A stretch of 64,000 nt of DNA from a virus (lineage: Duplodnaviria > Heunggongvirae > Uroviricota > Caudoviricetes), in the IMG/VR virus record IMGVR_UViG_3300035184_001394, positions 1-64,000 of that record; one strand, given 5' to 3'. A program made the translations under genes and the position numbers. Under the pieces are notes generated by a model. That model had not been told where the DNA came from. It made no database searches and saw only the letters and a list, made by a program, of their open reading frames with translations. Shown here piece by piece: positions 4,400 to 28,516 of this stretch. Each line of letters begins with the position of its first letter. Within the stretch, counting starts at the first letter, position 1.

Positions 4400-4428
4400 A
4401 TTATAACACAGTTATAAATAAATGTCAA
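4400..4428 (-). promoter_or_regulatory. early sigma70-like promoter (minus strand) for the 33-59-32 transcription unit
   Basis: rc reads TTGACA, 17 nt, TATAAT. Confidence 0.5.
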
Positions 4429-4436
4429 CGTTTTAT

Positions 4437-5114
4437 TTAAATTTCTTCAAATAAAACGTTATTAATATATCTATCTTTAGCTTGTTCTGATATGCCCATA
4501 GCAAGTATAGATCTATGCAGGTGCTTATTCATCTTCTGATTTTCACAATATTTGTTAAGTTGAGTTTTAGTTGGTAAGGTAGTAATCATTTTAATATCAT
4601 TGCAAGAAGCCAAATAAGCCTTAATAAGGTTAGTAGATAAACAAATCAACTGTTCTAACTCATCACCATAAGTGATAGAACCAGCAGCAACCATGTTGTC
4701 TGAGAATATTTCAGTAGCCCATTCAGGTAAATCTCTTGGTTTATTCCATTTAATATCCTTAACAGACGCTTTAAACAGTTCGCATAATGGATGAACTTGA
4801 TCTTTTATAACAGGAGAAAAGTCAAAAAACGAACCACTTATTTTAGTTTTAGATGCAACTATATCAAAACCAAGAATAGGTAAGTTAACATTTTCTCTTG
4901 GAAATATATTGATATGTAGCAACCACATTCTACCATCGTTAATCGTTTTCAAATGACACTTTCTAATGTTATCACTACACCAGAAAGAATCAGTCCACCC
5001 ATCGAATTGCTGATCATGTTTTTCGTTTATAAACGGTTTTAAATGATTATTAAACGTTTCGCTAAGACTTGATGCAAATGTATCAAGTTTATCCCAGAGT
5101 GGATTGATATCCAT
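4437..5114 (-). CDS. ferredoxin-dependent bilin reductase (PebS/PcyA/PcyX family)
   Basis: WLLHINIFPRENVNLPILGFDIVASKTKISGSFFDFSPV matches the FDBR core (hhh.FP....d.P.fG.D.v.....i...hhD.sP). Start overlaps the heme oxygenase stop (ATGA). Confidence 0.7.
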   Translation of the reverse strand: MDINPLWDKLDTFASSLSETFNNHLKPFINEKHDQQFDGWTDSFWCSDNIRKCHLKTINDGRMWLLHINIFPRENVNLPILGFDIVASKTKISGSFFDFSPVIKDQVHPLCELFKASVKDIKWNKPRDLPEWATEIFSDNMVAAGSITYGDELEQLICLSTNLIKAYLASCNDIKMITTLPTKTQLNKYCENQKMNKHLHRSILAMGISEQAKDRYINNVLFEEI

Positions 5115-5689
5115 TATAGATCATCAACTTCAAAATCTTCACCTTCAAAATTATCAACTAATTCTAAAAATAATAGCTCTGCAAACTTAAAACAGACAAT
5201 AGCTTCTGGGGCCATATCATTATTTAACATACTACGAAGATCTGTGATCAACTGTTTGCGACCAGTAAACTCATACATTGTACCAGAACCAGGGACTCTC
5301 TTTTTGATTATTTGACCACCATGTAAATCACCAAAATGCCGAACGTACAGATGAGCTAATAGCTTATCATGTTCTCCTTTTGCGCTAAGCTCGGTTATAT
5401 GACTAATATATGAACTAACTGATTCGAGGTTTTCGGTTATTTCTTCAAGTCCATACTCATCTTCAAGTCCATGCATATCTTGCATTATATGAGAAGCTCG
5501 AAAAACAGTTTTAAGTTTTGACGGAATTGTCACTAACGACTCAAGTGCTTCATAAATCTCATACTGGGCCGAGAGATACTGGTAATATAGTAGTGGATTT
5601 ATTCTTCCGCCTAATAATATTTCAGCAAAATCTGAGCCTTCTATATTATTATGATTCTCTTTGGTCAGTTCTCTTAAGTTTAGTGTCAT
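5114..5689 (-). CDS. ho1: heme oxygenase
   Basis: AHLYVRHFGDLHGGQII is the HO signature (cf. YVRYLGDLSGGQ). Translationally coupled to the downstream bilin reductase. Confidence 0.8.
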   Translation of the reverse strand: MTLNLRELTKENHNNIEGSDFAEILLGGRINPLLYYQYLSAQYEIYEALESLVTIPSKLKTVFRASHIMQDMHGLEDEYGLEEITENLESVSSYISHITELSAKGEHDKLLAHLYVRHFGDLHGGQIIKKRVPGSGTMYEFTGRKQLITDLRSMLNNDMAPEAIVCFKFAELLFLELVDNFEGEDFEVDDL

Positions 5690-5784
5690 TGTTATTTCTA
5701 TTCCTATTTACAGTTGTATTTCATTGATAATAATCGCCATTTTTCTTTGCTTCACGTTTCCGATCAATCATAACTATAGATTTG

Positions 5785-6036
5785 TTAAACGTCCTCGCAT
5801 GCTTTGCGACTAAGTTTCTTGAGTTTGGTTTCTTTTGTTTTGTTGTATTCATCTTTAACACCTAATATAAAAAATATAACGTAAAAACACGATGGAATTG
5901 ATAAGATAACTTGTAATAATCCAGCTGCAGTATCAGTAGTTCGAACATAAGACGCTACTGATATTATTACAATTGCAACAATAAAAATTGAAAATCTAGT
6001 AACGTTAATGAATTTTGTTTTTCTTTCTGCAATCAT
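5785..6036 (-). CDS. small membrane protein (83 aa, two TM segments)
   Basis: Hydrophobic ORF downstream of early promoter 6069-6096. Confidence 0.5.
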   Translation of the reverse strand: MIAERKTKFINVTRFSIFIVAIVIISVASYVRTTDTAAGLLQVILSIPSCFYVIFFILGVKDEYNKTKETKLKKLSRKACEDV

Positions 6037-6068
6037 CTAAACTTTTCACTTTTATTATTAATATGTTA

Positions 6069-6096
6069 TTATAACACAACAAAAAGAAAATGTCAA
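6069..6096 (-). promoter_or_regulatory. early sigma70-like promoter (minus strand)
   Basis: rc TTGACA then 16-17 nt then TATAAT. Confidence 0.5.
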
Positions 6097-6105
6097 CATT
6101 TATTT

Positions 6106-6285
6106 TTAGTAACCGCCACTCTTAAACCAACCCTTACCTTTCAATTGAAATCCGCCAGTAGAGGTGATAATCTTTTTCAAATCTCCAGCGCATTCTTCAC
6201 AGTTAGTCAATGCGTCATCTGACATACGCTGAACTGTGTCAATAACTTTTTTACATTTAATACATTCATATGTATATGTAGGCAA
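6106..6285 (-). CDS. FmdB-family zinc-ribbon protein (59 aa, TTG start)
   Basis: rc translation (M/L)PTYTYECIKCKKVIDTVQRMSDDALTNCEECAGDLKKIITSTGGFQLKGKGWFKSGGY. CxxC...CxxC. GGAGG sits 7 nt upstream of TTG. Not in the ORF track (under 60 aa). Confidence 0.45.
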   Translation of the reverse strand: MPTYTYECIKCKKVIDTVQRMSDDALTNCEECAGDLKKIITSTGGFQLKGKGWFKSGGY

Positions 6286-6297
6286 ATGTCATCCTCC

Positions 6298-6552
6298 TTA
6301 GTAGATTGCTCGGATAAATTCATCGCTAACTAAGATGCACTTAACACCCTCTACTGTAACAGGTAATCCCTTAGCCCAATCAAGAGCAACTTTATTACCC
6401 TGTTCAATATCCTCAACCAATGAGCCAACTTCCAAGACTAACCCTGGTAATGCACCTGTTGTAACTCGCTGTGTTAAGATTATGCCACTTTCTGTCAACT
6501 TATCGTTTGTTTTTATTTCGGTTACTAGTACAAAATTCTTTAATGGTTTCAT
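6298..6552 (-). CDS. groES: GroES/cpn10-like co-chaperonin
   Basis: MKPLKNFVLVTEIK...SGIIL...VLEVGS...V.VGD.IL... shows GroES architecture and length (84 aa). Confidence 0.75.
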   Translation of the reverse strand: MKPLKNFVLVTEIKTNDKLTESGIILTQRVTTGALPGLVLEVGSLVEDIEQGNKVALDWAKGLPVTVEGVKCILVSDEFIRAIY

Positions 6553-6577
6553 TATAATTTCTCTTTATTGTTGTTGT

Positions 6578-7189
6578 TTAATCAACTTTGGCTTTTTTCT
6601 TAGCTTCGCGTTTTTCTAATTTGCACGAACGTTTCTCTAGGCGCAGTAAAACTTCTTTACCATCCATCCACAAATCTTTATTATTAAGCATATCTTTGAT
6701 TTCTCTTTTTGTTAAAAAACCGCAGTAAACATCTCTTAATAATTTAGCTGACCAACAGCGTTCATGAATTATTTGACTATACATTTCTCCACCTTTACCA
6801 GAGGTTTTTCCAGCATAGTTGTGGAACATAAACATTGTATGACTAGATAATTCGAATACATCAGCACTCAAGAATATCATTGTTGCCGCTGACATACAAG
6901 CGCCTTCAACTGAAGCAATTACAGTAGCCCGACACTCGCGCAAAACTCGCATCATCTGTATAGCAGCAAGTAGATCACCACCACACGAGTTAATATGTAT
7001 ATGTACTGTATCAGCTTCACTGCAGTTTCTAATTATATTAAACCATTCGACGTAATATTCTGGAGTTTCTACTGGTCCTGATAAGTAAAAATCATGAACA
7101 ACATCAGTTGATCTGGAAGTAAAGAAATCCTTAGATTTGCTTGGCTGCAGTAAATCTAAGAAGTTATTATCAAATTTATTTTTTTTCAT
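6578..7189 (-). CDS. ClpP-like serine protease subunit
   Basis: INSCGGDLLAAIQMMRVL..ATVIASVEGACMSAATMIFLSA...MFMFHNYAG matches the ClpP G-G/S-M-A/H-Q-P regions. Confidence 0.65.
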   Translation of the reverse strand: MKKNKFDNNFLDLLQPSKSKDFFTSRSTDVVHDFYLSGPVETPEYYVEWFNIIRNCSEADTVHIHINSCGGDLLAAIQMMRVLRECRATVIASVEGACMSAATMIFLSADVFELSSHTMFMFHNYAGKTSGKGGEMYSQIIHERCWSAKLLRDVYCGFLTKREIKDMLNNKDLWMDGKEVLLRLEKRSCKLEKREAKKKAKVD

Positions 7190-7206
7190 GTAGTTCCTTG
7201 TATCAA

Positions 7207-7485: not shown

Positions 7486-7510
7486 GATATATTCCGTTTA
7501 TTTATGCAAT

Positions 7511-7675: not shown

Positions 7676-7709
7676 CTAACTATTACTCCTTGATTTAACT
7701 TATGAGACT

Positions 7710-7738
7710 ATTATAACACCACTAAAAGAAAATGTCAA
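7710..7738 (-). promoter_or_regulatory. early sigma70-like promoter (minus strand)
   Basis: rc TTGACA, 17 nt, TATAAT. Confidence 0.5.
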
Positions 7739-7741
7739 CTA

Positions 7742-8083
7742 TTATTTTAACAAAGATTCAAAACCTTGTTCTAAAGCAGCAGCTTCGATAATAGAGTTCA
7801 TTTCTAATTCAACTTCATCATATAAACATGATATATAACCGCTACTGTAGTTGCCATAATTGCGAGAAGGAATTCCGAATATTTTGGCAAATTGTGCTGC
7901 TCTATTACAAAGACCATTGTTATACAGGTCATAGTAACAATTTGATGCTTTGCGAAATTTCTCAAGCTTTTTGTTTTTACTACGTGGGTTATCAACACAA
8001 CCAGTAATTGGTATCAATTCGCAAAGCTCTTTTTGAGCTTTGTCATATTTTCCGTTATTGGCCCAATAAGTATTGTTGTTCAT
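7742..8083 (-). CDS. hypothetical protein (113 aa)
   Basis: ORF preceded by the conserved leader and by promoter 8133-8162. Confidence 0.5.
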   Translation of the reverse strand: MNNNTYWANNGKYDKAQKELCELIPITGCVDNPRSKNKKLEKFRKASNCYYDLYNNGLCNRAAQFAKIFGIPSRNYGNYSSGYISCLYDEVELEMNSIIEAAALEQGFESLLK

Positions 8084-8132
8084 AATTTAATTCCTAATTT
8101 AAGTTTTTTAAAGGTTTATCAATTTATGTAAC

Positions 8133-8162
8133 TATTATACTATAATCAAAGCGAAATGTCAA
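8133..8162 (-). promoter_or_regulatory. early promoter plus conserved leader cassette (minus strand)
   Basis: rc GTTGACATTTCGCTTTGATTATAGTATAAT AGTTACATAAATTGATAAACC...AGGAATTAAATT ATG. Confidence 0.5.
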
Positions 8163-8165
8163 CAG

Positions 8166-8348
8166 TTATATTGATACAAATTCGTATCTAATAAGAAGTG
8201 ACTCTACAACTAAGTAGAAAGCCCAAAACGGTATGGAAAAAGCAATGAGGGTTGACCAAAAGCCCTTAGCCAACACAATACCCCAAATCCATATGATGAA
8301 GAAAATTATTTTTACAAAAACGATTTTGTTTGTTCTCTTTGTTCTCAT
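8166..8348 (-). CDS. small membrane protein (about 60 aa, start taken at internal Met with AGGAAA SD)
   Basis: Hydrophobic ORF. The 5' extension listed in the ORF track overlaps the DUF551 gene. Confidence 0.4.
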   Translation of the reverse strand: MRTKRTNKIVFVKIIFFIIWIWGIVLAKGFWSTLIAFSIPFWAFYLVVESLLIRYEFVSI

Positions 8349-8350
8349 TA

Positions 8351-8659: not shown

Positions 8660-8729
8660 GTTCGTCTGACCAAAGTTTTAAATTATCCATTTTTAGTAAT
8701 CCACGCTGTTAATATATTAAACAAATGAC

Positions 8730-9023
8730 TCAAGAACAAATCACACCAATTGCACCGCCGAGTATTAAAATATGTTGAGCTTTCTTTCTTTTTATTTTTT
8801 CAGCGGCTGTTAATACTTTTCGTTTCGGTGGGAATAATTTTCTATCTTCAATATAAGCTAAAGATTCAGCTCTACTCATATTATATAATGCAGCAGCTTG
8901 TTTTTTTCGTTGTGAGTTTGAAATTTGAACAACTTCTACTTTTGCTTCTTCTAGATAATTTTTATGTTTATTTTGAGTCATAATTATAGTTCTCTGTTTG
9001 GTGTTGTTTTTGATGTTAGCCAT
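8730..9023 (-). CDS. hypothetical protein (97 aa, basic, C-terminal hydrophobic helix)
   Basis: ORF on the operon strand. Start uncertain. Confidence 0.35.
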   Translation of the reverse strand: MANIKNNTKQRTIIMTQNKHKNYLEEAKVEVVQISNSQRKKQAAALYNMSRAESLAYIEDRKLFPPKRKVLTAAEKIKRKKAQHILILGGAIGVICS

Positions 9024-9198
9024 AGATCAGAATCAATTTATAAAATTTGTAAGTAGTACTACATATCTCGATTGTGTCCGGACATTTTGCTAAAGCTCTC
9101 TCCTCGGATTTACCGCCTACTACTAAATCAGTGCGACGCCCTGCGGTTTTACTAGTATGTGTCGAGATAGATTTATAAACAGCCTTGAATGTCATCAT
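9016..9198 (-). CDS. hypothetical protein (60 aa)
   Basis: Preceded by the leader AGTTACATAAATTGATAAAGG and promoter 9229-9257. Confidence 0.35.
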   Translation of the reverse strand: MMTFKAVYKSISTHTSKTAGRRTDLVVGGKSEERALAKCPDTIEICSTTYKFYKLILIYG

Positions 9199-9228
9199 AA
9201 TATATTACCTTTATCAATTTATGTAACT

Positions 9229-9257
9229 ATTATACTAAAATCAAAGTAAAATGTCAA
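9229..9257 (-). promoter_or_regulatory. early promoter plus conserved leader (minus strand)
   Basis: rc TTGACA, 17 nt, TATAAT, then AGTTACATAAATTGATAAAGG. Confidence 0.5.
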
Positions 9258-9264
9258 CGTTTAA

Positions 9265-9753
9265 TTAAATTTCTTCAACAGTACAACCAAAGTATTTGTT
9301 TTGTGTAACTTTAATTATGTGATTCGATCTGTTCTCGTAGATAGCCCAGAGAGGGGTTTCATTAATAACACTATGATCTTTAATTTTATAAGCATAACTA
9401 TTTAAGATACCGTTCGCATATCTAATATTTTTTGTCATAACTTGCTTAAACATCCTTTCAGTATGAGTTTCAAATTCTTTGATAACTCCGGTTATCAAAC
9501 ACCACTTATGATAAAATACAGGACAATGAACGCCATAAGAAGGAATATCATTCAAATCAAGACCTACAGTATTATCTAAGTTATCAGTAAGAACTCTTGT
9601 TTTTCTGTGTATATCATCTTCATCACCACCGTGATGTTTAACATGTATTTTCACAAGTGACTGGTGAGTAGTTGCTTTTTTACTTCCGTCTCCCATTATG
9701 TTAGTACAAGAGTCCAAATAGTCTTTGATTAATGGTAGCATTTCATTATACAT
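9265..9753 (-). CDS. hypothetical protein (162 aa)
   Basis: Complete ORF. Promoter-like TTGACA at 9808-9813. Confidence 0.55.
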   Translation of the reverse strand: MYNEMLPLIKDYLDSCTNIMGDGSKKATTHQSLVKIHVKHHGGDEDDIHRKTRVLTDNLDNTVGLDLNDIPSYGVHCPVFYHKWCLITGVIKEFETHTERMFKQVMTKNIRYANGILNSYAYKIKDHSVINETPLWAIYENRSNHIIKVTQNKYFGCTVEEI

Positions 9754-9834
9754 AGTGTAGTTTCCTTTATTAATTTATGGAATTATAATAATACAAATTA
9801 AAATAAATGTCAAAGCTTATTTTAGATTACAAAC

Positions 9835-9869
9835 AAAAAAGGTTCTCGCAATTAAGGAGAACCTTTTAA
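9835..9869 (-). terminator. rho-independent terminator (minus strand) after the SPFH gene
   Basis: aaGGTTCTC-gcaattaag-GAGAACCtt hairpin (9-11 bp stem). On the minus strand it is followed by TTTTTTGTTTG. Confidence 0.6.
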
Positions 9870-9884
9870 TTAGTTTATTTTATT

Positions 9885-10748
9885 TTAATTTGTGCGCATA
9901 TCCAATATCGGCATTCCGCCTTCACCAAGGATGGTATATGGCAATTGACCATTCCATTGTTGTGCTTCAGTTAAGTCGACAATAAGTGGATTACTTTTCA
10001 GTGCAGCAGCTTTTGCTTTAATAGCGGAAGCTTCAGCTTCACCTTTTAATCGAATTGAGTTCGCTTCAGCTTCAGCAACAAAGTTAATACCGTCAGCTTT
10101 TGCTTTTGCTATGTTAACACCCTGTTGAGCAACTAGTGCTTGCTTATCAAGATTGAATTGTTCAGCATCAGCTAAGTTTTTAGCAGTCTGTTTAGTTTCA
10201 ATTGATTGCAAGTACTTTGGTGGTAACGTAATATTCTCAATTTGAATGTTATCAACTTTGACTGGGAACGGAGTCATTTCTTCAATTAATAATGATTCAA
10301 TCAACATAATAGCAGAACTACGATCTTGTATTAACTTTTCCGCAGTAAACTTAGGAATAACATCCTTGGTAGCAGAACGGAATCGTGGATCTAATATTCG
10401 ATTTTCAAATTGTTGAAGGCCGCCGTATTGTTTAAATAATTCAAGCGCAGCAGTTTTGTCGACTGTCCAGTTAACAGACACCTTCACTGTGACTGGCATT
10501 TGTTCTGCAGTGCTTGAAGTCATTGCTTCTTCGTTTTTACGAGTACGGATTTCAATTTCTTCGACAGTATCTGCGAATGGTATTTTAAATCGCAAACCTG
10601 GGTTTTGTTGACTTTTTGCTTCAGAGAAGCGTTTAACGATTCCCACGTGTCCTTCAGATACAGTGTACCAGCTTGACCACAATAGAAGAAATATTAGTAG
10701 TCCAATGATAGATGCTACGATAGTTTTAATTGGTAATGTTTTTTGCAT
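9885..10748 (-). CDS. SPFH/band-7 (prohibitin/HflKC-like) membrane protein
   Basis: N-terminal TM helix then an SPFH domain (VSEGHVGIVKRFSE...). Ala/Glu-rich coiled-coil tail typical of HflK/C and prohibitins. Confidence 0.75.
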   Translation of the reverse strand: MQKTLPIKTIVASIIGLLIFLLLWSSWYTVSEGHVGIVKRFSEAKSQQNPGLRFKIPFADTVEEIEIRTRKNEEAMTSSTAEQMPVTVKVSVNWTVDKTAALELFKQYGGLQQFENRILDPRFRSATKDVIPKFTAEKLIQDRSSAIMLIESLLIEEMTPFPVKVDNIQIENITLPPKYLQSIETKQTAKNLADAEQFNLDKQALVAQQGVNIAKAKADGINFVAEAEANSIRLKGEAEASAIKAKAAALKSNPLIVDLTEAQQWNGQLPYTILGEGGMPILDMRTN

Positions 10749-10882
10749 TTAGTTTTTTCCTTTGGTTGTTATTATAAATTTAAGTTTGTTAATAGTTTGT
10801 TATATTTTGCATTTTCGAAAGAGTTTTTAAAATCTCCATATTTAAACGGGCTCTAATTTTATTCTAGAATCCGTGTATATCG

Positions 10883-10907
10883 ATGAGGGTGGAATTTCCA
10901 CCCTCAT
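10883..10907. repeat. perfect 11-bp stem / 3-nt loop GC-rich hairpin (ATGAGGGTGGA att TCCACCCTCAT)
   Basis: Seen directly. Lies 14 nt downstream of the stop of gene 10921-11238. No U-run on the minus strand, so possibly a 3' stabiliser or processing site. Confidence 0.5.
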
Positions 10908-10920
10908 TGTCTATATTAAT

Positions 10921-11238
10921 TTAATAATTATAATCATAAAATTTTACAGGCTTTTCAGATAACAAGTAACGAGAGCCGCCAGCATCTTGCCATCTATCAT
11001 TTGCTTTGCTATATCTGATGCGGATAACTGAAGATTCAGTATCAGGTGTTATAAACCATCTTTGATCGTTTTGATTTGAACAATTCGCAGAGAACCCACC
11101 AACATGAAATTCCAATTTAAACGTTTCATCACGTACAGAATTCATTCTACGAATATCCATAGTTTTAGCAGAAACAGCACGAACAACTTCATAAGGAGTT
11201 ACGTCAGAGTAACCGTGACAATTTGCAAAATTATACAT
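10921..11238 (-). CDS. hypothetical protein (105 aa)
   Basis: Complete ORF whose start codon lies in copy A of a tandemly duplicated leader. Confidence 0.5.
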   Translation of the reverse strand: MYNFANCHGYSDVTPYEVVRAVSAKTMDIRRMNSVRDETFKLEFHVGGFSANCSNQNDQRWFITPDTESSVIRIRYSKANDRWQDAGGSRYLLSEKPVKFYDYNY

Positions 11239-11368
11239 AATTTATTTCCTAATTCAAGTTTTTTTAAAGGTTTATCAATTTATGTAACTATTATAATTTA
11301 TTTCCACATAATTTATTTCCTAATTCAAGTTTTTTTAAAGGTTTATCAATTTATGTAACTATTATAAT
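11236..11368 (-). repeat. perfect tandem duplication (2 x 62 nt, period 71) of the early 5' leader/RBS/start region
   Basis: cataatttatttcctaattcaagtttttttaaaggtttatcaatttatgtaactattataat occurs at 11236-11297 and 11307-11368. The upstream copy yields mini-ORF ATG TGG AAA TAA (MWK). Confidence 0.85.
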
Positions 11369-11389
11369 AAAATCAAAGCGAAATGTCAA
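11361..11389 (-). promoter_or_regulatory. early promoter (minus strand) driving the duplicated leader and gene 10921-11238
   Basis: rc TTGACA, 17 nt, TATAAT. Confidence 0.5.
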
Positions 11390-11392
11390 CGT

Positions 11393-11581
11393 TTATTTTT
11401 TATTATGTGGAACGTTACTTTTTTCTAAACCGTTTTTCTTAAGCAGTAAAGCTACAGTTTCTCTCTCTGTACTAATTCCTATATCAAGAATATCTAAGAC
11501 TCTTATGTAACCATTTTGCTTTATTAATAAAGCAACTGATTTACCGCGAGTTAACGTTTGTAAGTTCCGTGCTTGTTTCAT
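11393..11581 (-). CDS. hypothetical protein (62 aa)
   Basis: Preceded by leader plus promoter 11611-11639. Confidence 0.35.
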   Translation of the reverse strand: MKQARNLQTLTRGKSVALLIKQNGYIRVLDILDIGISTERETVALLLKKNGLEKSNVPHNKK

Positions 11582-11610
11582 TTTTGATGCCTTTATTAAT
11601 TTATGTAACT

Positions 11611-11639
11611 ATTATAATAAAATCAAAGTAGAATGTCAA
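11611..11639 (-). promoter_or_regulatory. early promoter plus leader (minus strand)
   Basis: rc TTGACA, 17 nt, TATAAT, AGTTACATAAATTAATAAAGG. Confidence 0.5.
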
Positions 11640-11652
11640 CGTTTATTTTAGT

Positions 11653-11826: not shown

Positions 11827-11840
11827 ATCGTTGTTCCTTA

Positions 11841-15138: not shown

Positions 15139-15167
15139 TATATGCCTTTTTCATTATATTGTTTGCT

Positions 15168-15196
15168 ATTATATACAATCTAACTACAAATGTCAA
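15168..15196 (-). promoter_or_regulatory. early promoter (minus strand) upstream of gene 43
   Basis: rc TTGACA, 17 nt, TATAAT. Confidence 0.5.
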
Positions 15197-15201
15197 CTAT
15201 T

Positions 15202-16914
15202 TTATAATACAACATCACTAAAATTTTTAATTTTTTGGAATTTAATATGAGCAGCAAATTTTTCAGCAAACTGATCACCTCGATGCGATATCACAAATAT
15301 GTTATCATCGCTGTTCACACTATGTAATGTCTCTATTAGATTTTCAATACCAACACCATCTAAAGCACCGTCTAGTGTTTCATCAAGAATCAACAAATTA
15401 GTAGATACAGAATTTCTTAATTTTGCAACTGATCTCCAAGATAACATTATAGCTAAAGTGATGCGAAGTTTCTCACCTTCAGAAAAAGAAGCATAAGAGA
15501 ATTTATCACGGAATCTTGATTTTATTATTTCGTTAAAGTTCTCGTCTAATTGGAAGTCTACGAATAAATCAAACTCAGCAAGATACTTATTAATCAATTT
15601 ATTCATGACAGGAATATACTGACTAATAATGCGAGCCTTAATGCCGCCATCTTTTAATATAGTACTCACAACGCCAAGTGTATTTTTAGCTTCAAGTAGT
15701 GAGTTATGTTCGCACTGTATACTAGATAAATGATCTTTAAGTTCAATAATACTGTTACTATCAACTTCTTTCATCTCTTTTTCAGCTGAATCTAAATCTT
15801 TCTTATAACTAGCGAGAGCATTCTTCCCTATTTTTATTTCTGAGCGACACTCCATTATTTCGACGTTGTTGCTTTTAATTAAATTTTCAATCGCAAGAAT
15901 TTCTTCTAATCGATCTTCAAATTGTCTAATCTTAACATCAATATCAATTAGCGCTTGCTGTATTTCGTCTCTCTTCTTATTCTTTTCTTGAATAACATCA
16001 ACTTTAAAATCGTGATCAATTCCCTGCTTGCATACAGGACAGTTATCGTTTTCATGATAAAAACTAAGATCTCTTGTAAAATTAAGGCTAACTTTTTCAA
16101 GGTCGCGTCGTATATTTCTGGCTTTATCAAATTTAGATTTGGCGTTCTTCTTATCTTCTATTTGAGAAGCGTATCCGTTAAACACTTGTTCAAAACCATC
16201 TATTTTTACATCACAATCTTTTATATGATCCAAATGACTACGCATTTTAGATCGTATTTTTTCGACTTCAGTTTTGCGTATTTTTTGAATTGATTTGTTG
16301 TGTTCTTTCGCTGATGTTATTTTATTTTCAGTTAAATCAAGTTGATATGCATTTTCGCTAATATCTAATTTGTTCTGACTGATGCGATCTTTAGCTAACA
16401 CATTCATAGTACTAAAAACTTGTATATCTAACAAATCTTCAATGATATCACGTCGCTGTGACGGAGACAATTCCATGAAGGGAACATATGTTGCACTACC
16501 TAATACAACTATTTGATTAAATGATTTGTAATTAATACCCAGAATGTTTTGCTCTAGATACGATTGATAATCGCGCGAAGCTGCATCTTGGTCGATCAGT
16601 TTACCGTTCTTAAAAATTTCAAATATTCCAGGTTTCATCCCACGTCTAATTAAATACTCTGCACCGGTTGCATTAAACTCAACTTCAACTAACATATCTT
16701 TGTCGTTGATTGAATTTATTAATTGAGCTTTGTTGACTTTTCTAAAAGCCTTTCCATATAGACCAAATACAATCGCGTCTAATATAGTACTTTTACCACT
16801 ACCATTGGCTCCACTAATTAGTGTCGAGTTACGACGATCTAAATCAATATGAGTAAAGACGTTTCCTGTTGATAATAAATTTTTATATCTAACTTTCTTA
16901 AAATGTATCCTCAT
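15202..16914 (-). CDS. 46: gp46 recombination endonuclease ATPase subunit (SbcC/Rad50-like)
   Basis: N-terminal Walker A (GANGSGKSTILDAIVFGLYG), long coiled coil with CPVC zinc hook, C-terminal signature/Walker B (LLILDE). Confidence 0.9.
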   Translation of the reverse strand: MRIHFKKVRYKNLLSTGNVFTHIDLDRRNSTLISGANGSGKSTILDAIVFGLYGKAFRKVNKAQLINSINDKDMLVEVEFNATGAEYLIRRGMKPGIFEIFKNGKLIDQDAASRDYQSYLEQNILGINYKSFNQIVVLGSATYVPFMELSPSQRRDIIEDLLDIQVFSTMNVLAKDRISQNKLDISENAYQLDLTENKITSAKEHNKSIQKIRKTEVEKIRSKMRSHLDHIKDCDVKIDGFEQVFNGYASQIEDKKNAKSKFDKARNIRRDLEKVSLNFTRDLSFYHENDNCPVCKQGIDHDFKVDVIQEKNKKRDEIQQALIDIDVKIRQFEDRLEEILAIENLIKSNNVEIMECRSEIKIGKNALASYKKDLDSAEKEMKEVDSNSIIELKDHLSSIQCEHNSLLEAKNTLGVVSTILKDGGIKARIISQYIPVMNKLINKYLAEFDLFVDFQLDENFNEIIKSRFRDKFSYASFSEGEKLRITLAIMLSWRSVAKLRNSVSTNLLILDETLDGALDGVGIENLIETLHSVNSDDNIFVISHRGDQFAEKFAAHIKFQKIKNFSDVVL

Positions 16915-17975: not shown

Positions 17976-18008
17976 TGTTTACCTCATTTATCTTGAATTT
18001 CATATGCT

Positions 18009-18037
18009 ATTATATAACAGTCAGTGACAAATGTCAA
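18009..18037 (-). promoter_or_regulatory. early promoter (minus strand) upstream of 47-46
   Basis: rc TTGACA, 17 nt, TATAAT. Confidence 0.5.
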
Positions 18038-18058
18038 CGTTATATAATAATTTGTTTA

Positions 18059-18556: not shown

Positions 18557-18594
18557 TATATTTAAACCTACAGTTAATAATTTTAATAGCATAC

Positions 18595-18623
18595 ATTGTA
18601 CCACAGTTATTATTAAATGTCAA
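18595..18623 (-). promoter_or_regulatory. sigma70-like promoter (minus strand) upstream of gene 55
   Basis: rc GTTGACA, 17 nt, TACAAT. Forms the left arm of a 24-bp perfect inverted repeat. Confidence 0.45.
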
Positions 18624-18680
18624 CGTTTATTATATTTTAATTTATCTGAAATAGTTGTTGACATTTAATAATAACTGTGG
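18601..18680. repeat. perfect 24-bp inverted repeat (CCACAGTTATTATTAAATGTCAAC / GTTGACATTTAATAATAACTGTGG) separated by 32 nt. Each arm carries a -35 box.
   Basis: Arms at 18601-18624 and 18657-18680, read directly. Confidence 0.85.
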
Positions 18681-18686
18681 TATAAT
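18658..18686 (+). promoter_or_regulatory. plus-strand sigma70-like promoter (TTGACA, 17 nt, TATAAT) firing antisense into the 3' end of uvsW
   Basis: Perfect consensus hexamers with 17-nt spacer. No plus-strand ORF follows. Confidence 0.4.
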
Positions 18687-18721
18687 AGATGTATCATCGT
18701 TAGTAATAATACTAAAAGGCT

Positions 18722-20253: not shown

Positions 20254-20404
20254 AAAATTAATCGAAGTCGTATATGGCTATTGGGTACGGGTTTTTGTCA
20301 CACTCCCATTCACCATTTCCACGATATGTGAAGACAAATCTATCACCACACCAGAACCTTGTTACTGTTTCACCTATTGTTCGTTTCATAATATAATTCC
20401 TAAA

Positions 20405-20752
20405 TTAATTATCACTAGTAATTCCTAATAAAATATCAACAGCTTTAAATTCAGACTCATTGCAACGATCATTAAGTAGTTTAATCTTAGCATTAAGTTC
20501 TTCATTTGCATTATCTAGATCATATTTAAGTTCATCGATTAAATCGTGAAGTCTTTTTATTTCGCGTCTTTGCTCAATTGCGTTGCTGATGTCATCTAAT
20601 AGTCTAAGATTAGGAATTGTATTAACGTAGTCCCATTCGTCATCTTCGAGTAGCATATATCCATTTGAAGTATACATGTAATATAAGTTATCATCGCCAA
20701 CGTGAGTAGGACGCGTAATATGTTGGCTTAACTCTGTGTTTTTGTTATCCAT
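20405..20752 (-). CDS. hypothetical coiled-coil protein (about 115 aa from internal Met with GGAG SD)
   Basis: ATGGATAA start overlaps the stop of the upstream gene. The longer ORF-track version overlaps it. Confidence 0.45.
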   Translation of the reverse strand: MDNKNTELSQHITRPTHVGDDNLYYMYTSNGYMLLEDDEWDYVNTIPNLRLLDDISNAIEQRREIKRLHDLIDELKYDLDNANEELNAKIKLLNDRCNESEFKAVDILLGITSDN

Positions 20753-21017
20753 TGCCTTTCTCCATAACATGTTGATACAAGAGTTTAAGATCACATAAAT
20801 CGTTTATATCTTCAATATCGTAACCCCATACAAGCGAGAAGTCTTCGATAAATTCTTCAAATGTTAACTCTGAATTGACTAGAGCATGCGGAACGATATC
20901 GCTTTTTGTGCAAAAATATCGATGTCTCTTAACTTTTACAGTAGCGTATGAAACAACTGTTTGACAGAATACGCTATCGTCAATAAATAATTGATTTATA
21001 TTCTCGGTAACTTTCAT
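20745..21017 (-). CDS. hypothetical protein (90 aa)
   Basis: Complete ORF preceded by leader (AATTGATAAAGGAATTAAATT ATG). Confidence 0.45.
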   Translation of the reverse strand: MKVTENINQLFIDDSVFCQTVVSYATVKVKRHRYFCTKSDIVPHALVNSELTFEEFIEDFSLVWGYDIEDINDLCDLKLLYQHVMEKGNG

Positions 21018-21071
21018 AATTTAATTCCTTTATCAATTTATTAGACTATTATAATCAAATCAAAATGTTAA

Positions 21072-21659
21072 CTATTCAATATAGCGAACATCATCTGAAT
21101 CTACTACTAATATTTGCGGTACCAGGCCAGCAACATTAGTGTTAATTTTCCACAAACCATCGCTCTTAAGTGTATTTTTGTCAAGAATTGCAAAGAATGA
21201 TTCGCTATTCTCAGTATTACTACAATTTAACACTAATTGATTATGTGTTACTGCAGTAATAGTAATAAAGACATAATCATCGTAAATGTATCCGTGAAAT
21301 TCATCGCCTATTACAATTGGTACATCGAGATAATTACTAGTACTAACTTCTTTTTGGTATACAAATTTTGTTTTATTAATTTGACTAAAATAAACTGGTG
21401 TGTTATTTTTGCAGACTTCTATAGAAATACTATCTAATTTAATTCTGTCTTGACCACATCTTCTAAATTCTTCATTGTCTTTAATAACACTCACATTATA
21501 ACCCCAACCAACTTCCTGTATGACTAATGTACCATCTTGATTACTTAGAACTCTCCAGTCGATGGTTTGTGATTTTCTTGTAGTTTTTACTAAGGAATTT
21601 ACTTTTAGATCAATTTCCTTAGTTTTAATTACATCAACTTTAGTATTTCGTACGAACAT
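21072..21659 (-). CDS. hypothetical protein, paralog A of a duplicated early gene (195 aa)
   Basis: MFVRN...SN..V.....R.....VLSN..G.LV.QEV......V..D......CG.D......I.I......P..FS......FVYQKEV...........GDE..GY..DD........TI.AV...QLVLN.......SFFA.LDK.....DG.WKI is shared with 22015-22611. Confidence 0.55.
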   Translation of the reverse strand: MFVRNTKVDVIKTKEIDLKVNSLVKTTRKSQTIDWRVLSNQDGTLVIQEVGWGYNVSVIKDNEEFRRCGQDRIKLDSISIEVCKNNTPVYFSQINKTKFVYQKEVSTSNYLDVPIVIGDEFHGYIYDDYVFITITAVTHNQLVLNCSNTENSESFFAILDKNTLKSDGLWKINTNVAGLVPQILVVDSDDVRYIE

Positions 21660-21689
21660 AATTTATTGCCTTTATCAATTTATGTAACT

Positions 21690-21718
21690 ATAATAAAATA
21701 ATGACAGCGAAATGTCAA
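21690..21718 (-). promoter_or_regulatory. early promoter plus leader (minus strand)
   Basis: rc TTGACA, 17 nt, TATTAT, AGTTACATAAATTGATAAAGG. Confidence 0.45.
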
Positions 21719-21721
21719 CTA

Positions 21722-21994
21722 TTATTTTTTATTTCGCTGTACTTTTAATTCGTCTCTCAAAATGTCAACGCCTTGAATTTCATGAGCTGATGCTGGTCCG
21801 TCAACACCAGTCATGCATGCTACTAAACTGCATCTATGCTTATCTAGTTTATTTTTAAGATTGTCGATTTTCTTATCTTTTGCGTTTAATAAATTGCACA
21901 AGTCACTTAATTCAATTTCAACATCACCTAACATTATTCTGCTTTTTGATTCCATATCAGAATAACAAAACTTGTATACACATTCATATTTCAT
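21722..21994 (-). CDS. hypothetical Cys-containing protein (90 aa) between the two paralogs
   Basis: Complete ORF. Central coiled coil. Confidence 0.45.
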   Translation of the reverse strand: MKYECVYKFCYSDMESKSRIMLGDVEIELSDLCNLLNAKDKKIDNLKNKLDKHRCSLVACMTGVDGPASAHEIQGVDILRDELKVQRNKK

Positions 21995-22014
21995 AATATA
22001 ATTACTTTATAAGG

Positions 22015-22611
22015 TTATACTGCTTCTGTGTAACGTATATCAGATGAATCTAAGTGTAATGTGTTACCATTTTCAAGGAAGATTTTCCAATCGCCGTCAG
22101 AGATAATAGAATCTTTGTCAAGAACTGCAAAGAATGATTTATCAGTATCATTATCGTGATAATTTAGTACTAATTGTTCATCTGAAACTGCACTAATAGT
22201 AACTGCAACATGATTTTCGTCATTATCGTCATTAAGGTACCCACTTAATTCGTCACCTGTTGTAATTCGGGCATCTTGGCGTACGTGAGTAATAACTTCT
22301 TTTTGGTATACAAATCTTGATTTAGAATAATCGCAACTAAAACAGATAGGAGTTGTATTTTGATCTATCTTTATAAAAATATCTAGAATTTCAGTTTTAT
22401 CTGTACCACATTCCATATAATTATTATGGTCTTGTATGACATTAACATTACTTAGACATTTAACTTCTTGAACAACTAACACACCACCATCATTACTCAG
22501 AACATGATAGTCAGCTTGCCTTTTATTAGAATTAATTGTAACTACAGTGTTAGACTTTAAAACAATTTCCTTAGTTTCAACTTTAGGAACTGCAACATTT
22601 CGTACAAACAT
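22015..22611 (-). CDS. hypothetical protein, paralog B (198 aa)
   Basis: About 35-40% identical by eye to 21072-21659 over full length. Same leader/promoter cassette upstream (22642-22670). Confidence 0.55.
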   Translation of the reverse strand: MFVRNVAVPKVETKEIVLKSNTVVTINSNKRQADYHVLSNDGGVLVVQEVKCLSNVNVIQDHNNYMECGTDKTEILDIFIKIDQNTTPICFSCDYSKSRFVYQKEVITHVRQDARITTGDELSGYLNDDNDENHVAVTISAVSDEQLVLNYHDNDTDKSFFAVLDKDSIISDGDWKIFLENGNTLHLDSSDIRYTEAV

Positions 22612-22641
22612 AATTTATTACCTTTATCAATTTATGAGAAT

Positions 22642-22670
22642 ATTACAACACATTCAAAGCTAAATGTCAA
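22642..22670 (-). promoter_or_regulatory. early promoter plus leader (minus strand)
   Basis: rc TTGACA, 17 nt, TGTAAT, ATTCTCATAAATTGATAAAGG. Confidence 0.45.
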
Positions 22671-22673
22671 CGA

Positions 22674-23111
22674 TTAATATTCCCCAGCCTGAAATTTCAT
22701 CACATCTATAATCGACTTAATTATAAAATTGCGAGAGTGTATGGTTTTAATAATATCCTCTAGATAATTAGCTCGAGCGGAATAATAGTCAACTTTTAAA
22801 CTTTTTGCTATGATATCTTTATCAGCTTGGATGTGCTTGTCGACATCGTTGCGTAAAACTTTGAGTTGGAATGGCTTCCAACTCATTTCATTTAAGGTCT
22901 CTTCAGCCATCGAACCATCATAGTATGATCGCTTCAGGTGTTCTAAAGTTCTATATTCAGCTTTGTGTTTTTTGACCCGTAGTACTTCATTGAAGTACAT
23001 GTTATAATATTTACTATGAAGCTTAGGTATATTTTTAGATTCACTAATCAGATTGTTTTCGTCAATAGTTGAATCTTTTGCCCATATCTCGCTTAGATCA
23101 TCAATACTCAT
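22674..23111 (-). CDS. uvsY: UvsY recombination mediator
   Basis: C-terminal HSRNFIIKSIIDVMKFQAGEY matches T4 UvsY KSRGFAIKHIQDMRAFEAGK. Central VDYYSARANY matches LDYYSGRGDG. Similar length (145 vs 137 aa). Near uvsW as in T4. Confidence 0.7.
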   Translation of the reverse strand: MSIDDLSEIWAKDSTIDENNLISESKNIPKLHSKYYNMYFNEVLRVKKHKAEYRTLEHLKRSYYDGSMAEETLNEMSWKPFQLKVLRNDVDKHIQADKDIIAKSLKVDYYSARANYLEDIIKTIHSRNFIIKSIIDVMKFQAGEY

Positions 23112-23139
23112 TATGTATCCTTTATCAATTTATGCGACT

Positions 23140-23168
23140 ATCATATCACAATCATTATGAAATGTCAA
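23140..23168 (-). promoter_or_regulatory. early promoter plus leader upstream of uvsY
   Basis: rc TTGACA, 17 nt, TATGAT. Confidence 0.45.
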
Positions 23169-23171
23169 CAA

Positions 23172-23654
23172 TTATATTTTTTCTATTTTAAAATAATTAT
23201 ACTTGAAAGTTGCAGTTGCTTCTGGATATTCGATTGTTGTTGCAGTAACGTCTAGTTGAATATCAGATAAACTTATTGGAAAACAGTCAACGAAAGTAAT
23301 TCTTAAGTGTGGGTTTTTGTGACTATTCGTAATAAGGATAATTATGTCAGCTTTTTCAGTAAGTCCGTTTGGAAATTTACCATATTGAGAGCTTTCTTGT
23401 GGAGCACTTATTCCTATAAGCCAATTTGTTATTTCTAAATAATTGTCCATAGTCTCATTAACTATAAACGATAAAATTAGATCATCATATTCTAATCTAT
23501 CACCAACATTAAAAATATTACCAAGCGGAGAGCCAGTATTGATATTACCAGATGATATAGAAGGAATGTTTATTTTTTGAGTATTAAATTCAACATTAGG
23601 CAAACGATCAATCGATATAGAAAAACTCGCCGTTGATAAATAATTAGTATCCAT
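23172..23654 (-). CDS. late structural protein with tail-tube-like C-terminus (candidate gp3 tail completion/sheath stabiliser)
   Basis: C-terminal PISLSDIQLDVTATTIEYPEATATFKYNYFKI resembles the gp19-family C-terminus (GELQLDWDSNNEIQTFEVTLALDYWE). Late promoter 23693-23700. Position upstream of uvsY as gp3 in T4-like cyanophages, recalled from memory. Confidence 0.4.
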   Translation of the reverse strand: MDTNYLSTASFSISIDRLPNVEFNTQKINIPSISSGNINTGSPLGNIFNVGDRLEYDDLILSFIVNETMDNYLEITNWLIGISAPQESSQYGKFPNGLTEKADIIILITNSHKNPHLRITFVDCFPISLSDIQLDVTATTIEYPEATATFKYNYFKIEKI

Positions 23655-25299: not shown

Positions 25300-25326
25300 A
25301 ATCTACCTTATTTAATTTATGATACT

Positions 25327-25355
25327 ATTATATCGCATTCATTATGAAATGTCAA
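25327..25355 (-). promoter_or_regulatory. early promoter (minus strand) upstream of gene 52
   Basis: rc TTGACA, 17 nt, TATAAT. Confidence 0.5.
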
Positions 25356-25509
25356 CGTTTATTTTTGAATTATATAATGATGCAGCATAATCATCAAGCT
25401 GCTCAAATTTGATAATGTCTTCTTCATAAGCAAGCTGAGATTTAGCTAAACATTCGTCCCACAGTTTCCAATCGAGATTGTTTGTATCTTTATCAATTCG
25501 TTTAACCAT
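25342..25509 (-). CDS. hypothetical small protein (55 aa, from internal Met with AGGAA SD)
   Basis: Trimmed from ORF-track 25342-25581 to the SD-supported start. Confidence 0.3.
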   Translation of the reverse strand: MVKRIDKDTNNLDWKLWDECLAKSQLAYEEDIIKFEQLDDYAASLYNSKINVDIS

Positions 25510-25520
25510 AATATTATTCC

Positions 25521-25661: not shown

Positions 25662-25665
25662 AGTA

Positions 25666-27492: not shown

Positions 27493-27517
27493 TTATCCTT
27501 TATCAGTTTATGTAACT

Positions 27518-27546
27518 ATTATATCATAGCGAGAACGAAATGTTAA
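27518..27546 (-). promoter_or_regulatory. early promoter plus leader (minus strand) upstream of gene 39
   Basis: rc TTAACA, 17 nt, TATAAT, AGTTACATAAACTGATAAAGG. Confidence 0.45.
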
Positions 27547-27644
27547 CGTTTATTTAAATATAATTTGTTATTAATCTTTTGACTGACATCTTATTATTTC
27601 AAATATATATTTATCGTCAGTTTCGTGATGTCCACCTGTGCTTC

Positions 27645-27908
27645 CTACCATTTCAATCGGCCCAGATGTACTATTATAAATTCTAAATTCTGACCCAACT
27701 TGCGATGCGCTAAATTCATATTGTGGATATATTCCAGTACATTTAATATATTTACCCTAACACCTTTCATTTTTGGATTTATAATATAGTGTTTTTTCTC
27801 ACTGAGATTATATTCTCTACAAAATACTTTTTGATAGTTAGTTATAATCTCGTTAAATGTACCTATAAATCCTACAGAACTTGGTTGCTTTATCATTTTA
27901 CTTCTCAT
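27645..27908 (-). CDS. hypothetical protein (87 aa), possibly truncated by a frameshift
   Basis: The ORF stops at 27645. A second short frame (MVGSTGGHHETDDKYIFEIIRCQSKD) continues to about 27568. Confidence 0.3.
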   Translation of the reverse strand: MRSKMIKQPSSVGFIGTFNEIITNYQKVFCREYNLSEKKHYIINPKMKGVRVNILNVLEYIHNMNLAHRKLGQNLEFIIVHLGRLKW

Positions 27909-27922
27909 TTTAAATAAAAATA

Positions 27923-28465
27923 TTACATATCCAACATTTTCTCAACTTGTTCAATAGTTTTGTTTAGACTTTCTTCATCATTAGTATCAATATAAACCAT
28001 TGCACCAGATTTGCGTTTCATTACTCTAATTTTAATTCCTGTTTTTGCATTGTGTAATTTTTTCTTGATTTCAGCACCCATCTCATCACTTGTTGTAATT
28101 ATAGCTCTTGTATCAGATTTAATATCTACTATTGGTTTAGGTTGTTTAGGAGCAAACGCAGCTGCGTTTGCTTTAGTCCATTTTTCTATTTGTGCTGCCA
28201 AATCAGCAAGTGTATTATCTTTACGTATAGTACCCATTGTTGAGTCAGTTTTACTGTTAACAAAGTCTGCATCATCTATATACGAAGTTTTCATTGCTTT
28301 TTTAGCATCATCACTTAATATTTTAATAAGTGCTTTTTTGATTTGTCTAGGATCAAATTGCAATGTTTGCCGTTGAACGTCTGGGTCAAGGCGACTTCTA
28401 TCCATTTTTATTAAAACTGAGTTTGGTTTAATTGATTCGTTTATGTAACTTTTAAATGATTTCAT
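27923..28465 (-). CDS. hypothetical protein (180 aa), first gene of the minus-strand early block
   Basis: Complete ORF with promoter 28488-28516. Confidence 0.5.
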   Translation of the reverse strand: MKSFKSYINESIKPNSVLIKMDRSRLDPDVQRQTLQFDPRQIKKALIKILSDDAKKAMKTSYIDDADFVNSKTDSTMGTIRKDNTLADLAAQIEKWTKANAAAFAPKQPKPIVDIKSDTRAIITTSDEMGAEIKKKLHNAKTGIKIRVMKRKSGAMVYIDTNDEESLNKTIEQVEKMLDM

Positions 28466-28487
28466 GTTTATTCCTTTTTATGAGTTT

Positions 28488-28516
28488 ATTATAAACTCGT
28501 TTAAATTAAATGTCAA
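28488..28516 (-). promoter_or_regulatory. early promoter (minus strand) at the divergent hub
   Basis: rc TATTGACATTT, 17 nt, TATAAT. Confidence 0.5.

Follow-up and report, generated by a model that had tools for sequence, protein, structure and literature searches.

Putative early promoter modules with a T5-like start sequence in an uncultured T4-like phage

A repeated promoter module in the early region

The stretch analysed here, referred to as the window, comprises 64,000 nucleotides (positions 1 to 64,000 of IMG/VR record IMGVR_UViG_3300035184_001394) and, judging by its gene content, originates from an uncultured T4-like myovirus. Within it we identified 29 full copies of a module in which TTGACA and TATAAT hexamers are followed by a short AT-rich start and leader sequence. 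We consider it probable, and hold this with good confidence, that these modules are early promoters read by the primary sigma70-type RNA polymerase of the host, the core ones having been inherited and a T5-like start/leader having been copied or homogenised among the others. An initial annotation, made from the letters of the window alone, had described about 25 copies of a mobile promoter-plus-leader cassette; this number agrees with the 17 full minus-strand copies within 4400-28516 plus the eight plus-strand copies that it listed, all of which are present and to which those at 18658, 28532 and 30598 can be added.

The minus strand holds 18 of the full modules (3651-28516) and the plus strand the other 11 (18658-41303), besides which there are a decayed copy (21027-21071) and a partial tandem copy (11235-11305). 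All 29 fall between 3.6 and 41.3 kb, in the replication/early region, and the sole further match with no more than one mismatch, at 54507, lies inside a gene of the structural region. Twenty copies have hexamers scoring 12/12 and nine more 11/12 or 10/12, with a spacer of 17 bp in 25/29 and of 16-18 bp overall. Perfect TTGACA-N16-18-TATAAT pairs were found 20 times, against 0.10 expected from Markov simulations, and the promoter part GTTGACATTT..TATAAT 22 times, against 3.6 expected. The 21-mer leader AGTTACATAAATTGATAAAGG, with up to three mismatches, gave 11 matches (0.01 expected), all on the minus strand: 8113-8133, 9208-9228, 9764-9784, 11269-11289, 11340-11360, 11590-11610, 21027-21047, 21669-21689, 22621-22641, 23119-23139 and 27497-27517. 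Every copy reads with the genes except for two that precede no open reading frame (ORF), and in 24 copies, whose position and orientation fit the downstream gene, an ATG follows the -10 on the same strand after 22-53 nt.

Some statements of the initial annotation need adjusting in the light of these counts. Its 17-nt gap holds between the hexamers TTGACA and TATAAT, but after GTTGACATTT the gap is 14; its nearly invariant 21-nt leader is real, but recognisable in only about half of the promoters; and a module stands directly before about a third of the genes only, rather than before most small early genes.

The genome has a G+C content of 33 %, and one might ask whether the repeats are no more than chance or compositional similarity with no common function, as weak sigma70-like matches are about as frequent as in shuffled sequence (129 vs 104; 107 vs 101). 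The numbers of perfect hexamer pairs and 21-mer matches refute this. Moreover, the copies are strictly intergenic, oriented with the genes and at a fixed distance to the ATG, and their positions are kept in relatives (a coarse synteny comparison with eight relatives, 8-22 kb of sequence each), all of which makes a chance origin vanishingly improbable.

Anatomy of the module

When all copies were aligned on the -10, the sequence directly 5' of TTGACA was found to be conserved as tAAAATAAacG. An A-tract of the proximal UP-like kind, AAAATAAACG, spans about -45 to -36 and overlaps the last codons and the stop of the upstream gene. In most copies this stop lies just 3-13 nt before the -35, often as a TAA within AAATAAACG, and there is therefore no intergenic room; scans for terminators between the upstream stop and the promoter revealed none next to promoters except at 9813. 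The spacer opens with TTT after the -35, and TGn precedes the -10 in about half of the copies. TATAAT is followed by A-G-T, by C-A-T at positions 6-8 and then by AAATTnATAAAGG, giving a 6-nt discriminator, AGTTAC, with G at -5, and a predicted +1 at the A of the CAT start, 7 nt after the -10. This start, also proposed in the initial annotation, agrees with the geometry of the experimentally studied T5 promoter PN25.

The first transcribed bases are AT-rich and read ATAAATTGATAAAGG in about half of the copies, and the AT-rich initial transcribed sequence of the module, ATAAATTGA, runs straight into a Shine-Dalgarno AAGG located 9 nt before the ATG. What had been called a 21-nt leader is a composite of the discriminator with its G at -5, the CAT start, the initial transcribed sequence and the Shine-Dalgarno. 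The 5' untranslated region (UTR) of the RNA is predicted to be unstructured, with a minimum free energy (MFE) of ∼0 kcal/mol.

Other identities of the leader were considered and rejected. Against a structured RNA stand this fold, an Rfam search of the window that returned nothing, and the observation that the AGTCTC..GAGACT hairpin formed by a single leader copy in other phages is not kept in the window copies. The phages in question (L084, L089, L090 and L098) belong to another T4-like clade of ∼30 % G+C and carry their copy behind a T4-style GTTTACA -35, before a 671-712-aa gene following gp46; the ends of their leader pair, those of the window leader do not. No link of the modules to a tRNA or tmRNA was found in the window. 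With respect to late promoters, CATAAATT in the leader resembles TATAAATA, yet genuine TATAAATA boxes sit elsewhere, before late genes including structural ones (before uvsW, regA, 23172-23654, 49996/50534 and 60945), and the module therefore belongs to a different temporal class.

Likeness to T5 early promoters

The early promoters of T5 and its relatives (Gentz and Bujard 1985, cited in PMC7472727; annotations in NC_005859 and AJ604530) are a described group. T5 early promoters have a common motif around +7, and our own alignment of annotated T5 promoters gives the same picture. In a blastn search of 50,697 cultured phage records with a 72-nt cassette, 774 records matched; most of the matches listed were to T5-like phages, and most fell in annotated promoters or in sequence bearing no annotation. 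T5 PN25, taken from primer and template sequences, reads TATAATAGATTCATAAATTTGAGAGAGGAG, its +1 being fixed by the -12 to +2 oligonucleotide TATAATAGATTCAT (PMC7472727); BF23 P15c, annotated as a promoter, reads TATAATAGTTATATAAATTGATGAAGGAG, and T5 PH207 contains ..CATAAATTGATAAAC. ATAAATT occurs at the start of 17/27 annotated T5 promoters and of 14/29 window promoters. Compared with PN25, BF23 P15c and the 27 T5 promoters, 14/29 copies combine the T5-type start CATAAATTGA.. with a purine-rich Shine-Dalgarno. The annotated early promoter of RB49 gene 32 also reads TATAATAGTCTAGTAAATTAAT.

As in T5, dozens of strong sigma70 promoters are packed directly behind upstream genes, each with an A-rich tract 5' of the -35, a TATAAT -10, a 6-nt discriminator, a CAT start and an almost identical initial transcribed sequence, ATAAATTGAT(G/A)A(G/A)AGG, running into the Shine-Dalgarno. 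They differ from T5 in the -35 (TTGCTT in T5, TTGACA in the window) and in the discriminator (ATATTC in T5, AGTTAC in the window), the T5-type combination of TTGCTT and ATATT being absent from the window modules; furthermore, T5 promoters are often paired with annotated terminators. T5 is a siphovirus of enterobacteria for which no protein kinship to the window phage was detected in the region studied, and the likeness of the start sequences is therefore most likely a functional convergence. The initial annotation had presented the repeated cassettes as homology tracts; the leader, being shared with T5-family promoters, is more than such a tract and a putative functional part of the promoter. 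In work on N25, the AT-rich initial transcribed sequence strongly affects productive initiation (PMC12464699).

Location of the modules

The minus-strand modules are as follows.

3603..3661, minus strand: gp32 promoter inside the gp59 3' end; 12/12 hexamers, 16-bp spacer, TGn, own leader
4379..4438, minus strand: module for a 78-aa ORF (4116-4352) and gp59; 12/12 hexamers, with an AT-rich 13-bp hairpin in the upstream A-tract (MFE -16.1, z -3.2)
6047..6106, minus strand: module for ORF 5785-6036, then heme oxygenase and bilin reductase; 12/12, own leader
7689..7748, minus strand: promoter module; 12/12 hexamers, relaxed leader AGTCTCATAAGTT
8113..8172, minus strand: module before ORF 7742-8083; long leader variant ..GATAAACC + AACTTAAATTAGGAAT
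9208..9267, minus strand: module before ORF 9016-9198; perfect 21-nt leader
9764..9890, minus strand: full terminator-plus-promoter composite, the only one of its kind; TTGACA with its T at 9813, leader with 3 mismatches, hairpin AAAAGGUUCUC..GAGAACCUUUUUU at ∼9835-9867 (MFE -17.8, z -5.6)
11235..11399, minus strand: module with tandemly duplicated -10-to-ATG part; T of TTGACA at 11389; first copy ends in a mini-ORF (ATG TGG AAA TAA), second would drive ORF 10921-11238
11590..11649, minus strand: module before ORF 11393-11581; leader with 1 mismatch
15147..15206, minus strand: gp43 (DNA polymerase) promoter; 12/12, own leader, same position in all relatives examined
17988..18047, minus strand: gp47 promoter; 12/12 hexamers, own leader
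18574..18633, minus strand: gp55 (late sigma) promoter; one arm of an inverted repeat
21027..21071, minus strand: decayed copy before ORF 20745-21017; TTAACA, 12-nt spacer, TATAAT, intact leader
21669..21728, minus strand: module before paralogue ORF 21072-21659; perfect leader
22621..22680, minus strand: module before paralogue ORF 22015-22611; begins 3 nt past the uvsY stop and opens a window-specific six-ORF insertion
23119..23178, minus strand: uvsY promoter; leader with 2 mismatches, position kept in relatives
25306..25365, minus strand: gp52 topoisomerase promoter; relaxed leader AGTATCATAAATTAAATAAGG
27497..27556, minus strand: gp39 topoisomerase promoter; leader with 1 mismatch
28467..28526, minus strand: leftward promoter at the transcription divergence point, before ORF 27923-28465

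The gp32 promoter has the same position in relatives L072 and L052, and RB49 has an annotated early promoter there too. Directly downstream of this promoter, the gp32 leader contains a hairpin, CAAGAAGGGTTTATACTTCTTG (3593-3614), which may relate to gp32 autoregulation as in T4. The start sequence of the gp52 promoter is similar to that of promoters before the gp52-like start in L060, L072 and L066. Strong terminator-like hairpins are few in the early region: besides that at 9835-9867, which follows the Band-7 gene, they were seen at 10881-10909, after ORF 10921-11238 (z -5.0), and at 42305-42321, between gp45/ORF 42036-42278 and gp44.

On the plus strand, the following promoters were located.

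18648..18715, plus strand: divergent ORF-less promoter, antisense into the uvsW 3' end; other arm of the inverted repeat
28522..28643, plus strand: two tandem rightward promoters (28532, 28595) before ORF 28654-29007
29678..29742, plus strand: second ORF-less promoter, paralogue of the 18658 element, followed by GATatataATC and AATAATACTA
29779..29837, plus strand: module before ORF 29846-30589; 16-bp spacer, relaxed leader
30588..30647, plus strand: weaker promoter, TTGACA / TACAGT, before ORF 30670-30921; long leader variant
31600..31659, plus strand: module before ORF 31682-32101; 12/12 hexamers, own leader
32844..32903, plus strand: module before ORF 32912-33364; leader AGTTACATAAATTTATTAGGA
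33717..33776, plus strand: promoter before inositol-3-phosphate-synthase-like gene 33838-35118; 82-nt leader
39739..39798, plus strand: module before ORF 39806-40438; 12/12 hexamers, own leader
41293..41352, plus strand: gp45 sliding-clamp promoter; 12/12, own leader, position kept in relatives

The ORF-less antisense promoter after uvsW is of the perfect sigma70 type, and its position is common to 23 distinct relatives (L005-L081). Right after its -10 stands a palindrome of 4-6 bp, GATGtatCATC in the window, the arms of which vary between phages while pairing is kept (AAGGTT/AACCTT, AGGCT/AGCCT, AGAACT/GGTTCT, TCGA/TCGA, GATG/CATC); a stem of at least 5 bp was present in 56 % of the uvsW antisense promoters vs 14 % of other promoters. 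An A-rich stretch and an ATAYTA box come next; in the window the palindrome is followed by AATAATACTA. This element (18648-18721 in the window) could specify an antisense RNA, an origin-type primer promoter or a 3' hairpin of the uvsW mRNA. Elements like its paralogue at 29678..29742 were also seen on contig 3300035184_000978 (minus-strand promoters at 3287 in L001 and at 4422 in L091), and in the window the promoter at 29789 comes 100 nt after the ORF-less one (29678-29790). The inositol-3-phosphate-synthase-like gene (33756-35118 with its leader) matches TIGR03450 at 2e-58, below the cut-off; its unusually long 82-nt leader has a possible GUGGG..CCCAC hairpin, which is not significant vs shuffles.

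Inherited positions and copying between sites

Promoters occupy the same positions in many relatives, with proteins of 63-80 % identity: before uvsY, gp55, gp43, gp45, gp39 and gp52, within gp59 in the case of gp32, and in antisense direction right behind uvsW. On this ground the core-gene promoters are taken to be inherited in place and are not mobile. The array as a whole is therefore not the mobile cassette array of the initial annotation; part of it is inherited and part homogenised within the lineage. The shared leader is lineage-specific, as ATAAATT at the start, so frequent in the window, was found in only 25/287 promoters of clade relatives. Over the 21 nt that follow the -10, identity reaches 70 % or more in 16.6 % of the promoter pairs in the window vs 0.4 % in relatives, and over the spacer in 6.8 % vs 2.9 %; spacer and leader similarity are correlated (r 0.31), and spacers are shared within sub-families (8162/9257/11389/11639/21718/22670; 23168/25355; 18623/18658/4428).

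Exchange between copies is also suggested by individual sites. Tandem Repeats Finder located a duplication at 11235-11368 (period 71, 1.9 copies, 100 % identical), in agreement with that previously placed at 11236-11368. The inverted duplication formerly described as perfect over 18601-18680 is real, although its 42-nt arms (18590-18631 and 18650-18691) are 86 % complementary and perfect only over a 26-nt core (18599-18624 / 18657-18682). The divergent promoter pair formed by these arms has identical spacers only in the window phage; the pair itself is ancestral to the clade, with only the homogenisation of its sequence specific to the window phage. The tandem duplication, the homogenised pair, the spacer sub-families and the decayed copy with its 12-nt spacer stand as signs of copying between sites. 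Furthermore, the tandem paralogue ORFs 21072-21659 and 22015-22611 (195 and 198 aa, 44 % protein identity) have diverged while keeping nearly identical leaders, which suggests selection or conversion on the leader. They belong to a window-specific block of six ORFs (20258-22611, minus strand) between uvsY and uvsW, an interval in which relatives carry a single small ORF or none; the block starts exactly with a cassette.

Joint travel of cassette and ORF was considered and rejected: no cassette accompanies the homologues of ORF 10921-11238 found on 11 other contigs, and the 21072-21659 family has no relative in IMG/VR. A second T4-like contig, IMGVR_UViG_3300035184_000978 (gp23, gp22, NAMPT, PNK, RNA ligase), has ∼11 more promoters with the leader or close variants, some sharing window spacers, and ATAAATT at the start of 5/9 promoters. 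No genes common to this contig and the window were found in the ∼38 kb of its 65 kb that were compared, and it is either another part of the same genome or part of a sister genome.

Proposed function and alternative explanations

Taken as early promoters, the modules would be read by the primary sigma70-type polymerase of the host right after infection, each as a full-strength promoter made up of A-tract, -35, spacer, -10, discriminator and CAT start. By analogy with T5 PN25, the start/leader part may help open-complex stability, promoter escape and ribosome loading. As there are almost no terminators between modules, transcripts would overlap and add up along the early region. The promoters of the core replication and recombination genes would have been inherited in place, and the T5-like start/leader version copied or homogenised among many promoters, mostly before accessory ORFs, likely through recombination or gene conversion between copies. 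Several points weigh against this reading. Most promoters of clade relatives lack the leader, which is therefore dispensable for promoter function and of putative benefit; the spacer excess is only moderate, such that part of the resemblance could reflect convergent selection rather than copying; and promoter activity, start site and timing are deduced from sequence and analogy.

The nearest described elements are the promoter-early-stem-loop elements (PeSLs) of RB49/phi1, PST/T4 and nt-1/KVP40 (Arbiol et al. 2010, PMC2839356; Comeau et al. 2014, PMC4122927), in which an AT-rich tract with the upstream stop precedes a sigma70-like promoter, a Shine-Dalgarno plus ATG forms the 3' end, and a stem-loop takes one of five positions. 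The window modules likewise occur in a T4-like phage, with the stop in an AT-rich tract and a Shine-Dalgarno and ATG at the 3' end, and in many copies in small-ORF-rich regions, with a genome-specific conserved leader and degraded 'half' copies. They share TTGACA-N17-TATAAT with the RB49/phi1 PeSLs. With T4 early promoters they have in common the temporal class, the phage group, an A-rich upstream region and a TATAAT-like -10, but not the -35, which is the full E. coli consensus and not the TTTACW of the T4/PST consensus TTTACW-N17-TAYWAT (PMC4122927), as had been noted at the outset. In RB49, scanned as a positive control, the spacer of many PeSLs is a GGGGATC..GATCCCC palindrome, in addition to a conserved leader of their own, and 9/16 PeSLs fold better than shuffles over -65..+12 (z<-2), vs 5/29 window modules. 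No G+C-rich hairpins were present in window spacers; most copies have no such stem-loop in or beside them, the only clear cases being 9813 (terminator upstream) and 4428 (AT-rich hairpin), and 18658 a weak one. Taken as a family, the modules therefore function like a PeSL's promoter half but lack the stem-loop. We regard it as possible, but doubtful, that these are nevertheless PeSL-type mobile cassettes whose main role is to offer homology for the excision, insertion and swapping of ORFs (mini-circle shuffling), as in RB49/phi1. The architecture fits the PeSL description (PMC2839356), and the copies, which are direct repeats, are identical over stretches of a few dozen bases. Exchange among them is indicated by the tandem duplication, by the decayed copy and by the homogenisation of the divergent pair. 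The window-specific insertion that separates uvsY from uvsW has a cassette exactly at its start, and the homologue of ORF 10921-11238 in unrelated phages without one fits resident cassettes receiving incoming genes. On the other hand, the defining stem-loop and the neighbouring terminators are missing from most copies, and core-gene promoter positions are kept across a clade differing by 20-37 % in these proteins. Indels beside promoters are expected for any phage with one promoter per 1-3 early genes, which makes the association a weak one, and the closest sequences, at ∼71 % DNA identity, are too distant for mapping indel end points. Recombination between copies was shown by inverse polymerase chain reaction in RB49/phi1, whereas in the window we infer it.

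It is distinctly unlikely, in our view, that the leader is the binding site of a trans-acting early shut-off factor, be it RegA on the mRNA or a polymerase-binding protein acting via the discriminator, as proposed for T5 gp026. A regA gene is encoded in the window (43964-44368, directly after gp62; PHROG 6e-52, Pfam 2e-41), and RegA sites are unstructured and located on or just 5' of the AUG. The consensus selected in vitro by T4 RegA is aaAAUUGUUAUGUAA (by SELEX), and RB69 RegA selects UAA triplets (PMC3014915); the unstructured leader AUAAAUUGAUAAAGGnAAUAAAUUAUG has AAAUUG and three UAA triplets. In T5, moreover, each temporal class has a different discriminator, and the contacts that the polymerase makes at -5/+2 are weakened by gp026 (PMC7472727). 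Nevertheless, such a resemblance is low in information at this G+C content, and the leader is a candidate site on sequence grounds. The same start sequence is present in T5-family phages, in which we know of no RegA, so that it can be explained without this protein. The genes for clamp and clamp loader, in T4 the classic targets of RegA, carry other leaders in the window. Unlikely, too, is a broader version, in which the 15-nt start/leader (C)ATAAATTGATAAAGG would be a discrete cis-element on which T5-like siphoviruses and the window lineage converged, read by a specific factor and spread within the lineage by gene conversion as a co-regulated early regulon; candidates for this reader are region 1.2 of the polymerase together with the active-site cleft (during escape), ribosomal protein S1, and a shut-off protein of the phage, for example RegA.

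With the modules read as host-transcribed early promoters, the present data map promoters and transcription units across the early region in an aquatic, uncultured T4-like clade represented by ∼280 IMG/VR contigs. The full E. coli-type consensus is apparently recognised by the polymerase of the host, which makes hosts with promoters in the style of cyanobacteria or Bacteroidota less likely guesses. Start and leader are nearly identical to those of T5 early promoters; this suggests that very strong phage promoters have a general optimum of sequence, and the cassette may accordingly be usable as a strong promoter/5' UTR part. The array is also a natural case for concerted evolution of regulatory repeats. 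The kind of element is already well described, and the interest lies mainly in the cross-family convergence on one start sequence and in the early transcription map.

Source phage and neighbouring genes

The window encodes gp32, gp59, gp43, gp46, gp47, gp55, UvsW, UvsY, UvsX, gp45, gp44, gp62 and RegA, the topoisomerase subunits gp39/gp52, and furthermore heme oxygenase, a PcyA-like bilin reductase, GroES, a ClpP-like protease and an SPFH protein. Among cultured phages, the best match to its DNA polymerase comes from the cyanomyoviruses, at 44 % identity; identity to the polymerases of the ∼280 IMG/VR contigs is 68-80 %. A megablast search of the window against cultured phages gave no match, a scan of IMG/VR and of metagenome contigs for the cassette pattern did not bring up the genome from which the window derives, and the ∼71 % quoted above is the best DNA identity in any collection.

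UvsX is split over two ORFs (703-2204, minus strand). The first contains the RecA domain and ∼90 aa starting CVVEGTEI, with weak Hint_2 and Intein_splicing matches, and the second ∼40 aa ending ..GIVTHN, followed by the UvsX C-terminal domain; the 53 nt between them hold stop codons and a fresh Shine-Dalgarno. The pair looks like a naturally split intein. Heme oxygenase adjoins the PcyA-like ferredoxin-dependent bilin reductase (4437-5689, minus strand) in what is a non-cyanophage-like T4-type phage. Both genes are also present as a pair in relatives L072 and L052, and they recall the phage PcyX/HemO pairs of the literature.

On the plus strand, 36240-37406 encodes a 5-hydroxymethyldeoxyuridine (5-hmdU) DNA kinase helical domain (Pfam PF18723, 2e-12). 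Judging by sequence, ORF 38514-39740, in the same block, is likely a methyltransferase, and ORF 32912-33364, ∼3 kb upstream of the kinase-domain gene, is likely a dCMP deaminase; together the three hint at hypermodified thymidine in the DNA. Finally, the genes for a ClpP/NfeD-like serine protease (6578-7189, minus strand) and for an SPFH/Band-7 protein (9885-10748, minus strand) lie 2.7 kb from each other, a neighbourhood that echoes bacterial NfeD-stomatin pairs.

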